The notes under the pieces: generated by a model
What the model was told of the DNA's origin: nothing
The model's database searches: none
What the model saw: only the letters and a program-made list of their open reading frames with translations
Part shown: positions 1 through 7,884 of the stretch, piece by piece
Layout: each line of letters begins with the position of its first letter
How positions within the stretch are numbered: position 1 is the first letter of the stretch
Position numbers and translations under genes: made by a program
NCBI GenBank assembly: GCA_028693335.1
Contig: JAQUVR010000027.1
Coordinates: forward strand, 1-7,884
Direction: 5' to 3'
DNA length: 7,884 nt
Source of the DNA: Candidatus Iainarchaeum sp.
GTDB lineage: Archaea; Iainarchaeota; Iainarchaeia; Iainarchaeales; CSSED10-239

Positions 1-1
1 T

Positions 2-430
2 TTAGTTGTTGTTTCTGTGATAATTATTTTAATAATTTTAAATATAAATAAAAAGCTTGCAAATGAAAAATTATCACAAGCAGTTGGAATTGTAGATGTT
101 ACAAAAAATATATCAAGAGAAAGTCATAACTTTGTAGTAACAAATTTAACTGGTAAAAAGGTAATTATAAAAAACATGAGTTCTAGTTATAGTCCAACAA
201 TAACCGGTTATATAATAAGTAGTACAAAAGATCAATTTCCTTATAATTGTATAATAACATTAGAAGAAAGCTTAACAATTCCGTCTAGTAGTATAATGCC
301 ACTAGAAATAGAATGTGTTCCTAAGCCAGAAGGAACTAGAAATTTTAAATTAAGCTTAATTACAGAAGAAAGCACCTTTATAAATCTCTTTGTTCCAGCA
401 AATCCAAGTGCAGAAAATTGTGATGAATAG
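2..430 (+). CDS. Archaeal pilin-like (class III signal peptide type) surface protein, 5'-partial; true start lies upstream of the window
   Basis: The frame is open from the first bases of the window (codons from nt 2 read LVVVSVIIILIIL...). The GTG at 17 used by the ORF track therefore sits inside a hydrophobic helix and is unlikely to be the start. The helix resembles LIVVSVIIIVVVL of the gene at 6464. The following Asn/Ser/Thr-rich segment (NFVVTNLTGKKVII ... ITLEESLTIPSSS) parallels 6611-6895 (KLTFRNSSNQNIVVL ... LLEESILVNNGG). N-x-S/T sequons are present (NIS, NLT, NMS). TAG stop at 428-430. Confidence 0.6.
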   Translation, partial: LVVVSVIIILIILNINKKLANEKLSQAVGIVDVTKNISRESHNFVVTNLTGKKVIIKNMSSSYSPTITGYIISSTKDQFPYNCIITLEESLTIPSSSIMPLEIECVPKPEGTRNFKLSLITEESTFINLFVPANPSAENCDE

Positions 431-5003: not shown

Positions 5004-6161
5004 ATGCCCACAAAAATAAGAAAAGAGATATTAGAAAGTACTTGGCAAGAAGATCTACTTAGATTAATATATAGTGGGCAAATAGAAAATATTACAGAAA
5101 TATTACCATTAATTACCCCTGGAGAGAATATAAGAGCAGCTCTTGACAATATTTTAGATGGACAAACTGGCGCTATTATTATTCTTGGGACTAATGAAAA
5201 GTTAGATGATATTGTTAAAGGAGGCATGAAACTAGATGTTCCATTTACTCCAAGTAGATTATTTGAATTATCTAAAATGGATGGTGCAATAATTCTTTCA
5301 AATGATCTAAAAACTATTCTACATGCTAATGCTCATTTGATGCCAGATAGAGACGTTTCTTCAAAGGAAACTGGTATAAGACATAGAAGTTCTGAACAAA
5401 CAGCAAAACAAACAGGCTTACCTGTTATTACAATATCAAAAAGAAGAAATATTATTTCATTATTTTTTAAAGATCAAAAATATGTTTTGCAAGATCTAAG
5501 TCTATTAATTGTAAAAGCAAATCACGGAATTAACACTCTTAGAAGATATAGGGAAAGAGTTGATCAGGCATTAGATCAATTAACATACAATGAATTAAAT
5601 AACCAGTCTTCTCTTTCAGAAGATGCTATATCAATTATTCAAAAAATATTATATTTTTATGTACATAGTTTTGAATTAGATAACTTGATTATAGAACTTG
5701 GAAATCAAGGAAGAGAAGTTGTTCAAAGCATGTATGAATATGCATTTGGTTTAGATGATGTTTTGTCTTTGATATTACAAGACTATTGTGAGCCAGAAAT
5801 AAATAAAGAAGAAGCAGATATTTTAGTTAAAAAAATAAAACTATTAGATCTTAGAAAAATAACAGATCCTAAAAAAATATCCGAAATTTGCTCTATTCCT
5901 TTAGATATAATAGATCATAATCTTAATAATGAAATAATCTATAAATATCCAAGAGGATATAGGATATTATCATTAATACCAAAAGTAAAAAAGAAAACTA
6001 TTGAAAAAATAATATATAATAAGAAAAATATCTATAATATTCTAAACACAACACCAGAAGAAATGTCAAAAATTACAGATCAAGATATAAATTTTTCAAA
6101 TTATTTAAAAAGAAAGCTTGACGAATTGGTTGAAAAATCAATAGATTTTGTTGGGTTATAA
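5004..6161 (+). CDS. disA: DisA-type diadenylate cyclase (c-di-AMP synthase; DAC domain + helical linker + C-terminal HhH-like region)
   Basis: 385-aa ORF. The catalytic DGA (5280-5288) and RHR (5379-5387) motifs occur in the contexts ELSKMDGAIILS, ETGIRHRSSEQTAKQTG and ISKRRNIISLF. A long helical linker (LIVKANHGINTLRRYRE...) and a C-terminal PRGYRILSLIP segment follow. This is colinear with bacterial DisA (Thermotoga/Bacillus) as I recall them. Confidence 0.9.
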   Translation: MPTKIRKEILESTWQEDLLRLIYSGQIENITEILPLITPGENIRAALDNILDGQTGAIIILGTNEKLDDIVKGGMKLDVPFTPSRLFELSKMDGAIILSNDLKTILHANAHLMPDRDVSSKETGIRHRSSEQTAKQTGLPVITISKRRNIISLFFKDQKYVLQDLSLLIVKANHGINTLRRYRERVDQALDQLTYNELNNQSSLSEDAISIIQKILYFYVHSFELDNLIIELGNQGREVVQSMYEYAFGLDDVLSLILQDYCEPEINKEEADILVKKIKLLDLRKITDPKKISEICSIPLDIIDHNLNNEIIYKYPRGYRILSLIPKVKKKTIEKIIYNKKNIYNILNTTPEEMSKITDQDINFSNYLKRKLDELVEKSIDFVGL

Positions 6162-6220: not shown

Positions 6221-6442
6221 ATGAAAAAAACAACTTTTCTGTTAATAATTGTTTTAATAATTATAATAATATTTTTTATTTTTGCAAACTACAAAACAAT
6301 TAAACAATCAGAAACAGAAATCTCTAAAGATATTTTAGAATATCAGAATGGGTTGATTAAAGCAAGTAATTTATCAACAGTAATTATTCTAGGAATCATT
6401 GTTGTTATATTTTTTATATTTTGGAAATTGTTTTTCAGATAG
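6221..6442 (+). CDS. Small hypothetical membrane protein (2 predicted TM helices)
   Basis: 73-aa ORF. MKKTT is followed by the hydrophobic FLLIIVLIIIIIFFIFA, a ~35-aa polar loop, then the hydrophobic VIILGIIVVIFFIFW. It lies 59 nt after disA and 21 nt before the pilin-like ATG at 6464. I recognise no family. Confidence 0.5.
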   Translation: MKKTTFLLIIVLIIIIIFFIFANYKTIKQSETEISKDILEYQNGLIKASNLSTVIILGIIVVIFFIFWKLFFR

Positions 6443-6463: not shown

Positions 6464-6610
6464 ATGTTAAATAAAAAAGCAATAAGCCCAATTATTGCAT
6501 CAACTTTGTTAATCGTAGTTTCAGTAATTATTATTGTTGTTGTTTTAACTTTTGGAACAGATTTTACAAAAAAAGGAACAATACAAGTAGATAATGTCTT
6601 TGGAAATTAG
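6464..6610 (+). CDS. Archaeal class III (prepilin-type) signal peptide segment, 48 codons ending at an in-frame TAG; probably the 5' part of one gene with 6611-7884
   Basis: Hand codon walk: ATG at 6464, TAG at 6608-6610. MLNKKAISPIIASTLLIVVSVIIIVVVLTFG has a short basic n-region, an A-ISP motif and a ~20-residue hydrophobic helix. This is typical of archaeal prepilin/preflagellin-type N-termini. It is apparently too short to appear in the ORF track. Confidence 0.6.
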   Translation: MLNKKAISPIIASTLLIVVSVIIIVVVLTFGTDFTKKGTIQVDNVFGN

Positions 6611-7884
6611 AAAGAAACTGTTGATATATCTTTATTTCCAAGAAACTATGCTAATGGCAAATTAACTTTTAGAAATTCAAGTAATCAAAATATAGTTGTC
6701 TTAGGATATAAGATATTTGATGAAAACACAAGTGCTGGAGCACAAGATCTAATATTGTTAGAAGAATCTATTTTGGTAAATAATGGTGGACAATCAACCA
6801 TTGAATTTAGTAGGTTGCCTGTTGGATCTAAATTTTCTGTTCAATTATATTTAGAAAATGAAGTTTATGTAACATTAAAAAATATTTCAATTTTTCCACC
6901 AAATAATCCAGAAGAAACAGATCCACCAATAGATCCACCAGAAGAAACCTGTTTATTTGATAATTTTGATCCACAGTTATTTTTAACAAATTGGGATTTT
7001 TCTAAACTTGATAAAGGTGTGGTTGGTAATAGTTATAACTCAACAACAGATTGTCAATTAATTGCTGGAGAAGAAGGCACATATCTTGCTGTTGTAGATT
7101 ATGGTCATTTTTCTGGAAATGAAATATTAAATTGTAGTAATGATTCAACATTAAATATTGATGATAGTTTTAGTATTGAAATGATTTTAAATACTAATTA
7201 TGAAGTGCCCAATATTATAAAAATGGCAATAGGAAAAGAACACAGTTGTTTTTTATTAAATTCTAAATCTGTTGAATGTTTTGGAAATAATGCGTATGGT
7301 CAATTGGGAGATGGCAAGGAAGCATCTAGACTACACCCAAGGCCAATTGAAACAAAAGTTCCAGAACTAGAAAACATTATAGATATTGGTGCTGGAGATA
7401 ATTTTTCTTGTGCACTTACTGGAGATGGAAATATCTATTGTTGGGGTATTGGAGAAAGTGGGAGATTAGGTATTGGTTCTGAAGAGACGGCGCTATCACC
7501 TAAAAAAATAATAGAAGGAGATAAAGATATAAACTTTGTAAAATTAAGTGTTGGTGGAAGACATGCCTGTGCTGTTAGTGATGAAAAAGGAATAAAAAGT
7601 CTATATTGTTGGGGAGCTAATGATTTTGGTCAATTAGGTGTTGGATCAGAGGACCCATTCATATCAAAAATTATTCTAGTTGATCTTAAAGGAATTGTGG
7701 CAACAGATCTTAATGTGGTTAGTGGATATGCTCATACTTGTTTAAATACAATTAATGATAAAAAAGAACAAGAGTTTTTTTGTTGGGGTGATAACAGTAG
7801 GGGACAAGTTGGTATTAATTCTTTAGAACCTAAATTTAATGGACTTCAGTCACATAATAACAATAAAGTTGTAGATGTGTTTTC
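6611..7884 (+). CDS. RCC1-repeat beta-propeller surface protein body, 3'-partial, with no start codon of its own near its 5' end (continuation of 6464-6610 across the TAG; possibly a pseudogene)
   Basis: The same frame as 6464 stays open for 424 codons to the window end. Base composition predicts roughly one stop per 12 codons by chance. Modules: an Asn/Ser/Thr-rich beta-type segment (6611-6895), a PEETDPPIDPPEET hinge (6896-6949), a module with 3 Cys (6950-7210), then RCC1-like blades. The first in-frame start candidates are only TTG 6755, GTG 7019 and ATG 7181. Confidence 0.85.
7211..7884 (+). repeat. Tandem RCC1-like blade repeats (protein level, 54-58 codons each; at least 4, continuing beyond the window)
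   Basis: The signature recurs as ECFGNNAYGQLG (7274-7309), YCWGIGESGRLG (7436-7471), YCWGANDFGQLG (7604-7639) and FCWGDNSRGQVG (7778-7813). Each is preceded by a (G)xxH/FSCAL-type strand (KEHSCFL, DNFSCAL, GRHACAV, YAHTCLN). Confidence 0.75.

Follow-up and report, generated by a model that had tools for sequence, protein, structure and literature searches.

The window analysed here, a stretch of 7884 bp, is one complete contig of a metagenome-assembled genome (MAG) with the organism label 'Candidatus ainarchaeum sp.' (DPANN). Near its end a reading frame opens with an ATG at 6464 (N-terminus MLNKKAISPIIASTLLIVVSVIIIVVVLTFG) and joins an archaeal pilin module to a cargo composed of a LamG domain and an RCC1 beta-propeller. 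We conclude, with fair confidence, that this pilin-RCC1 gene encodes a modular archaeal type IV pilin-like adhesin, which in the window is cut short by a nonsense codon. The frame holds a single in-frame TAG, after which 425 codons stay open up to the contig end, and the other two frames over 6464–7884 are dense with stops. As a previous sequence-only reading of this DNA had expected, the gene continues past the window: its remaining C-terminal 265 amino acids (aa) lie on a separate contig of the same MAG (P0122, PHU47_03175). GenBank divides the locus into two calls, PHU47_01835 (48 aa) and PHU47_01840 (371 aa, partial). The gene comprises the following features, for which AF2 denotes AlphaFold2, HMM a hidden Markov model and pLDDT the predicted local distance difference test score.

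6464–6481, forward strand: class III (prepilin-type) signal peptide leader MLNKKA, with predicted cleavage after Ala6 (KKA↓ISP)
6485–6592, forward strand: pilin alpha-1 helix, residues 8–43, with the hydrophobic half at residues 7–30 (AF2 model)
6608–6610, forward strand: in-frame TAG, codon 49; TAC in L001 (the 117-kb contig of a near-identical strain, GCA_030154545.1) and in L023; the second assembly L002 has TAG, like the window
6632–6889, forward strand: seven-stranded beta-sandwich, residues 57–142, with a conserved GYKI motif (AF2, HMM, Foldseek)
6896–6949, forward strand: Pro/Glu/Asp/Thr-rich linker PPNNPEETDPPIDPPEET, residues 145–162, with low AF2 pLDDT
6950–7213, forward strand: the '3-Cys module', assigned by Pfam and alignment to the N-terminal side of a LamG (concanavalin A-like) jelly roll; last strand DDSFSIEMILNTNY
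7214–7884, forward strand: RCC1 propeller of seven blades, of which the initial four and a half are encoded before the gene runs off the contig (Pfam, AF2, Foldseek)

The N-terminus reads MLNKKA↓ISPIIASTLLIVVSVIIIVVVLTF, a short basic leader followed by a hydrophobic stretch, as in the class III signal peptide that had been proposed for it. In a profile built from the protein family, the mature subunits 8rey_M (VSPIIATILL), 5kyh and 3j1r start at position 7 (Ile7 in this protein), and cleavage is therefore predicted at KKA↓ISP. The motif K-[AS]-[IV]-S-P-[IL]-I-A is common to the paralogues, and residues 7–34 are nearly invariant among paralogues that are otherwise 20–35% identical. When the family profile was compared with PDB sequences, the matches were almost only archaeal type IV filament subunits: 8fk7_A with an E-value of 3.4e-8 across 113 residues, 8rey_M with 1.6e-4, and further 9myg, 8fj5, Iho670 (5kyh), 8gi2 and 3j1r. 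An HMM of the paralogues scores 68–71 bits on residues 1–145 of the intact alleles described below. The AF2 model of residues 1–160, computed from a 50-sequence family alignment, reached a pLDDT of 83.7 and shows the helix at 8–43 and seven strands over 57–142; pLDDT is 96 over residues 11–30 and mostly 77–97 in the beta-sandwich. A Foldseek search of 350,542 PDB chains with this model placed the type IV pili of Pyrobaculum calidifontis (8fk7) and P. arsenaticum (6w8u) as the top two matches, and the Haloferax pilus and the Sulfolobus AAP filament appeared lower in the list. Judged by profile similarity, the N-terminal 145 residues are an archaeal type IV pilin module homologous to solved pilins, and the module is predicted to fold like them. 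The Asn/Ser/Thr-rich stretch of about 95 codons, previously taken for an element in its own right, does contain the sequons NSS, NTS and NIS (residues 71, 88 and 140); it is, though, the pilin's own beta-sandwich and not a separate module.

Behind the Pro/Glu/Asp/Thr hinge, which is present as described before, the cargo extends about 590 residues (about 65 kDa) beyond the pilin module. The four RCC1-like signatures of the window were found again at residues 272, 326, 382 and 440 (CFGNNAYGQLG, CWGIGESGRLG, CWGANDFGQLG and CWGDNSRGQVG), spaced by 54, 56 and 58 codons, which bears out the 54–58-codon spacing reported earlier. The Pfam scan that had been suggested gave scores well above cut-off for the window frame, with 116.5 bits for RCC1 (cut-off 21.7) and 99.3 bits for RCC1_2. 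An intact allele scores 151.9 bits for RCC1, 147.8 for RCC1_2 and 210.8 for WD40_RLD, has six to seven repeats over residues 245–615 and carries seven C[WF]G motifs, against four in the window. In the intact alleles the propeller spans residues 244–617 and is followed by a C-terminal LamG part at 618–738. The blade count and predicted structure, also asked for at the outset, agree: AF2 models a propeller with seven blades in the intact allele at a pLDDT of about 90 (in a full-protein run whose alignment depth comes from RCC1 only), and Foldseek retrieves UVR8, RPGR, HERC2 and RCC1 with target TM-scores of 0.84–0.88. On these models the propeller is a confident seven-bladed RCC1 fold.

The stretch of about 87 codons that had been set apart as a 3-Cys module has its cysteines at residues 163, 197 and 224. 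By sequence comparison, it is not a module of its own but the N-terminal part of a LamG domain that the sequence-only reading had missed. In the native intact allele, Laminin_G_3 (PF13385) matches only in part, at residues 628–728 and over profile positions 40–150, with 17.6 bits; the C-terminal piece alone scores 22 bits. When residues 244–617 were excised in silico, the score rose to 28.3 bits (cut-off 27.6) and the match ran over profile positions 10–150 across the junction. In an alignment of the excised sequence with 16 LamG domains of the family, HFSG...DDSFSIEMILNTNY pairs with the canonical '...FDG...FTIxxWv' strands and LLKSAKIYDYSFTDENI with '...IDDVRIYNRALTxxEI'. Because excision raises the Laminin_G_3 score and both flanks align with family LamG domains, the sequence comparison indicates that the RCC1 propeller is inserted into a loop of a LamG jelly roll, the '3-Cys module' being the first third of that LamG.

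Relatives of the pilin module form a large archaeal family. When 1.84 billion representatives were scanned in full by HMMER with the pilin-module profile, 550 clusters (at 50% identity) matched, 128 of them at E<=1e-10, and in 149 of the best 150 clusters the module stands at the protein N-terminus. A word-indexed search was less informative: the non-RCC1 parts of the protein returned one fragment only, and the full-length query was swamped by RCC1 proteins. Pfam domains were counted as cargo among 96 longer family representatives. Laminin_G_3 is the most frequent (23/96), followed by GLUG (17/96) and RCC1 (7/96); Lcl_C, Peptidase_M26_N and the DUF5122 propeller occur in 6/96 each, CHB_HEX_C_1 in 5/96, and Kelch and PT-HINT in 2/96 each. 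Representatives within P0271–P0419 include proteins with PT-HINT, Kelch propeller, DUF285 or FGE-sulfatase cargo, and on account of PT-HINT, FGE-sulfatase and similar cargo the family pilins may present toxins or enzymes besides adhesins. The family is also dense locally. In L001, three family genes lie within 21 kb, among them the paralogue P0143 (409 aa, 4 kb downstream), which combines a weak Pilin_N match with Laminin_G_3 and is 66% identical to this protein over the first 35 residues. A scan of the species representatives of GTDB showed that MAG GCA_964586355.1 has at least 12 genes with the N-terminus M..K[KR]S[VI]SPLIATILLIVVSVILITVVLTWG; their module of about 150 residues is mostly followed by Laminin_G_3 (up to 96.7 bits), and the genes often stand in tandem.

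At least eight other archaeal proteins combine the pilin module with RCC1; those with an organism name carry only 'archaeon'. The propeller follows the module directly or comes after CHB_HEX_C_1, and one of the eight has a similar LamG C-terminal piece. The propeller of the present protein scores 106–135 bits against these other archaeal pilin-RCC1 proteins and 160–180 bits against bacterial RCC1 proteins. As it does not stand nearer to the archaeal propellers than to the bacterial ones, it shares no recent ancestry with the former, and the comparison suggests that RCC1 was grafted onto pilin modules repeatedly. One bacterial RCC1 match, P0068, does carry the bacterial prepilin N-methylation motif.

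A filament assembly locus was found in related genomes. In a sister species, it encodes a T2SSE ATPase fused to Fer4, a VTT protein and, in two genes, the T2SSF platform; at a distance of 3.4 kb upstream stand three genes of the family, and one more, encoding a 363-aa LamG pilin, lies downstream of the ATPase locus and is preceded by a DUF5018 gene. The ATPase-platform locus is present in four further Iainarchaeia lineages as well. According to a preprint (bioRxiv 10.64898/2026.04.22.720090), the archaeal 'System 1' filaments of methanogens and DPANN typically have such a split platform. A search for the T2SSE ATPase of the window's own species through P0147, P0148, P0170 and P0188 returned loci from related lineages only; P0148 stems from the run next to that of allele P0002, which hints at an origin in the window's own species but does not prove it. 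L001 and the sister-species locus (L005) share about 80% nucleotide identity and are syntenic from GluRS to the 409-aa paralogue. At the site of the RCC1-pilin gene, the sister species has only 142 bp; DisA is absent too, and the small membrane-protein gene between the two is present. The RCC1-pilin gene is therefore a species-level indel, and DisA and the pilin gene are two adjacent species-specific indels.

For signal processing, filament incorporation, the adhesin role and the ligand, we infer the following course. A prepilin peptidase would remove the leader MLNKKA, and the T2SSE ATPase with the split T2SSF platform would feed the hydrophobic helix into the core of a type IV filament. Most subunits of this filament would probably be short pilins without cargo, like the one of 165 aa encoded at the start of the window. 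The bulky LamG-RCC1 cargo, possibly glycan-binding, would be displayed at the tip or sparsely along the filament and act as an adhesin for a host cell or a surface. In the window strain, the change from TAC to TAG at codon 49 would truncate the product to leader and helix; most likely the adhesin is switched off or lost in the window population, and sister strains keep the gene intact.

Several results weigh against this interpretation. The gene is interrupted in the window's own strain. It is not adjacent to assembly machinery and is absent from the sister species. The Foldseek TM-scores of the module to pilins are low (0.40–0.46), and Pfam Pilin_N (PF07790) matches residues 5–34 with 15.1–15.6 bits, below the gathering score of 25.2; in favour of the pilin module, though, the paralogues consistently give the same weak N-terminal match, at 15.8–22.5 bits. 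The archaeal pilin and flagellin models of NCBIfam/TIGRFAM, which the earlier proposal had named as a check, do not match this protein. The LamG portions have a pLDDT below 50 in the full-protein AF2 model. A regular-expression search, the only method applied, found no A24/GxGD-type prepilin peptidase motif in about 200 kb of loci examined; the complete genomes of the window's MAG and of GCA_030154545.1 lay outside this search. Finally, a protein burdened with 65 kDa of cargo might stay tethered to the membrane and not polymerise.

The last point leads to the strongest alternative, which we nevertheless regard as unlikely: a surface-tethered binding protein whose class III N-terminus provides no more than a membrane anchor or a means of bindosome-like assembly, with the cargo held at the cell surface. 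There is precedent in archaea: the sugar-binding proteins of the Sulfolobus bindosome are non-pilins that carry class III signal peptides and depend on an assembly system resembling that of type IV pili (PMC3047682). In size, the cargo exceeds the pilin module about fourfold, the gene in L001 stands about 6 kb from other family genes without an adjoining ATPase or platform, and the lack of a peptidase match in the same motif search would fit too. However, what is conserved and homologous to polymerising pilins is the whole 145-residue module and not just the helix, and this helix is nearly invariant in divergent paralogues, as expected for subunits of one filament core. In addition, the sister-species paralogues cluster around filament machinery, and bulky bacterial modular pilins do enter pili (PMC8179133). 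The bindosome proteins themselves differ from this protein in having no conserved pilin beta-sandwich, in carrying solute-binding proteins of ABC transporters as cargo and in forming no long filament. The earlier idea of an exposed propeller on a pilin anchor is supported by the pilin homology and the seven-bladed fold; for this particular copy, where the gene is interrupted, it probably does not hold.

The interruption itself was examined by comparing alleles. Four intact alleles from near-identical strains, P0001 (738 aa), P0002 (739 aa), P0126 (743 aa) and P0128 (747 aa), each form one open reading frame (ORF), so that helix and propeller do belong to a single gene. Codon 49 is Tyr in 4/4 of them and TAC in L001 and L023, the two that were read as DNA. 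Since the intact alleles have Tyr at this codon, the simplest reading is that the TAG is a real, recent TAC-to-TAG nonsense mutation in the window's population, and not a recoded codon; the window strain probably does not make the full-length pilin-RCC1 protein, and the gene is probably inactivated.

That full-length protein is still made, either through readthrough or recoding of the TAG or because the TAG is a sequencing or assembly error, appears improbable to us. In its favour, the frame downstream of the TAG is undamaged, with 425 codons nearly identical to the functional alleles and a ratio of nonsynonymous to synonymous substitution rates (dN/dS) among alleles of 0.36–0.58, and no in-frame ATG follows until about residue 240, well inside the LamG segment; the first alternative starts are TTG codons near residues 98 and 105. 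An undamaged frame behind the TAG is, however, equally to be expected if the mutation is very recent. TAG is a normal stop here, closing 5/10 of the window ORFs, and two of these five have further stops close behind. The Tyr TAC of the relatives is one transversion away, and L002, which is distinct from the window at two other codons, has the same TAG at codon 49. We rejected recoding or readthrough on the grounds that relatives carry TAC and that TAG ends half of the window ORFs.

The GenBank calls would make two independent genes of the locus: PHU47_01835 would be a membrane peptide of 48 aa, and PHU47_01840 a separate RCC1 protein of the cytoplasm, started from an internal TTG. This proposal is favoured by the annotation of the NCBI pipeline, but we give it next to no probability. 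Each of the four alleles is a single ORF, the pilin-module HMM fits one collinear domain that continues across the TAG (66 bits upstream, 63.6 bits downstream), and the internal start of the annotation would cut the beta-sandwich midway. The annotation is corrected accordingly: one gene had been divided into a 48-aa peptide and a partial RCC1 protein.

The alleles vary in other respects as well. They are mosaic, the window resembling P0002 in the hinge (PPIDPP insertion) and P0001 around residues 240–250 and 370–430, which suggests recombination among strains. The hinge is polymorphic in length, with a 4-residue indel between alleles, the L001 version being four residues shorter.

Contrary to what had been assumed at first, a fusion of a pilin with an RCC1 propeller has been characterised. 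PilX2 of the Saccharibacteria strain TM7x combines a pilin-like part with a heptabladed RCC1 propeller. Mutants without it still form filaments, but their host binding falls from about 10.6% to 4.6%, and PilX2 has been put forward as the adhesin on the thin T4P-2 pilus; the neighbouring PilX1 carries a beta-jelly roll (PMC11623550). By analogy, PilX2 is the closest characterised counterpart of the pilin-RCC1 protein: both have a pilin-like N-terminal helix and a seven-bladed RCC1 propeller, and the organism that carries PilX2 is an ultrasmall episymbiont. PilX2 differs in being bacterial, in having an N-terminus that is not a predicted PilD substrate and in having no LamG around the propeller. 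The resemblance, which was drawn from the description of PilX2 and not from its pilin sequence, most likely reflects convergent domain grafting.

The protein also has the architecture of the modular pilins defined by Raynaud et al., with a pilin (residues 1–145), a linker and a LamG/RCC1 unit. In the bacterial proteins, a short linker connects the small pilin module to a functional module that is not pilus-specific, and a tip location and a role in adhesion have been proposed for them (PMC8179133). Streptococcus sanguinis PilB carries a vWA module and PilC a concanavalin A-like lectin module (Raynaud et al. 2021, PMC8179133), and PF13385 and M26 peptidase modules are among the frequent bacterial architectures (PMC8179133). 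The cargo spectrum of the archaeal family is similar, with LamG in 23/96 and Peptidase_M26_N in 6/96. The two groups differ in the N-terminus: bacterial modular pilins have the N-methylation motif G↓F/M-x-x-x-E, whereas this protein has the archaeal-type KKA↓ISP with a beta-sandwich and no GFxxxE. A further difference is that the cargo is here a nested two-domain unit, with the propeller inside LamG. Archaea are not mentioned in the bacterial survey, which was based on the IPR012902 motif of bacteria (PMC8179133).

The solved archaeal pilins (8fk7, 6w8u, 8fj5 of Haloferax volcanii and Iho670 of Ignicoccus, 5kyh) share with this protein the helix and the Ig-like sandwich; they are, however, filament subunits of 130–300 aa without grafted enzymatic or binding domains, whereas the module is joined here to its cargo of some 590 residues. 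The tip adhesins PilY1/PilC resemble the protein in presenting a seven-bladed beta-propeller at the pilus tip for adhesion, a position that is only predicted for the propeller described here. PilY1 is not a pilin, and its propeller is of a different family (IPR008707). The PilC/PilY1 propeller domain (PF05567 / IPR008707) gave no Pfam match in this protein at E up to 1.

What is new is that such a protein occurs in archaea (DPANN), how large the family is and how varied its cargo, and the nesting of a propeller in a LamG domain. The archaeal pilin-module family with its 550 clusters appears to be unsurveyed in the literature, the bacterial survey having used a bacterial motif only. In a keyword search of a 2026 survey of archaeal type IV filaments (TFF), adhesin-like proteins came up and the term 'modular' did not. 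The archaeal modular pilins parallel both the bacterial modular pilins and the RCC1-propeller pilin that Saccharibacteria use for host binding. As recognition of hosts or surfaces by ultrasmall DPANN archaea is largely unexplained, the locus offers a testable class of candidates, pilins with grafted binding modules; for the window strain itself, the practical point is that the gene is probably inactive.

A wider interpretation can be put forward only tentatively. The modular pilins of Iainarchaeia might be rapidly diversifying, interchangeable heads for host or surface recognition on one filament, and the RCC1 member might converge functionally with PilX2. It is equally speculative that the strain-level variation of the RCC1 member (presence or absence between sister species, mosaics, hinge length and the nonsense allele) reflects selection on host range. 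With the same reserve, the propeller-in-LamG nesting could represent a previously undescribed composite binding module.

Two further genes of the window touch on the pilin gene.

1–430, forward strand: cargo-less 165-aa pilin, 5'-truncated by the contig end; complete copy at L001 4931–5428, with the N-terminus MRSKKDKKKIKKKSVSSIIIVTLLVVVSVIIIL
6221–6442, forward strand: 73-aa two-helix membrane protein, ending 21 nucleotides before the pilin start codon

With the pilin-module HMM, the complete 165-aa pilin of L001 reaches 95.5 bits and the window fragment 79.7 bits, and this protein is a candidate structural (major) pilin. The GTG start at position 17 that is listed for the first window ORF is a contig-edge artefact. 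The 73-aa protein has no significant family match in the Pfam and NCBIfam scans; its C-terminal half is conserved at the syntenic site of the sister species. A TATA-like TTTATAAATA stands upstream of its gene, and the 73-aa gene and the pilin gene may on this account be co-transcribed.

The other neighbours of the pilin gene in the window encode an archaeal-type GluRS, a thioredoxin, an MBL hydrolase, HAD and GNAT proteins and DisA, the last being a bacterial-type diadenylate cyclase at 5004–6161 (NF010009, 319 bits). The use of TAG as the stop codon of half of the ten sizeable window ORFs occurs despite a genome G+C content of only about 25%, at which TAA would be expected to dominate.

Some features of the Iainarchaeia assembly loci were also recorded. 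The T2SSE ATPase (L009 7090–8790, and L010, L014 and L022) has an N-terminal 4Fe-4S ferredoxin domain of the Fer4 families; behind it come, in some lineages, an uncharacterised ORF of 327–383 aa and then two short T2SSF genes. In one Iainarchaeia lineage, an ORF of 1029–1039 aa without Pfam matches lies upstream of the ATPase locus (L010–L013, about 5130–8250). In the L013 assembly this ORF is split into three, of 326, 312 and 359 aa, a possible strain-level disruption of a large surface-protein gene.

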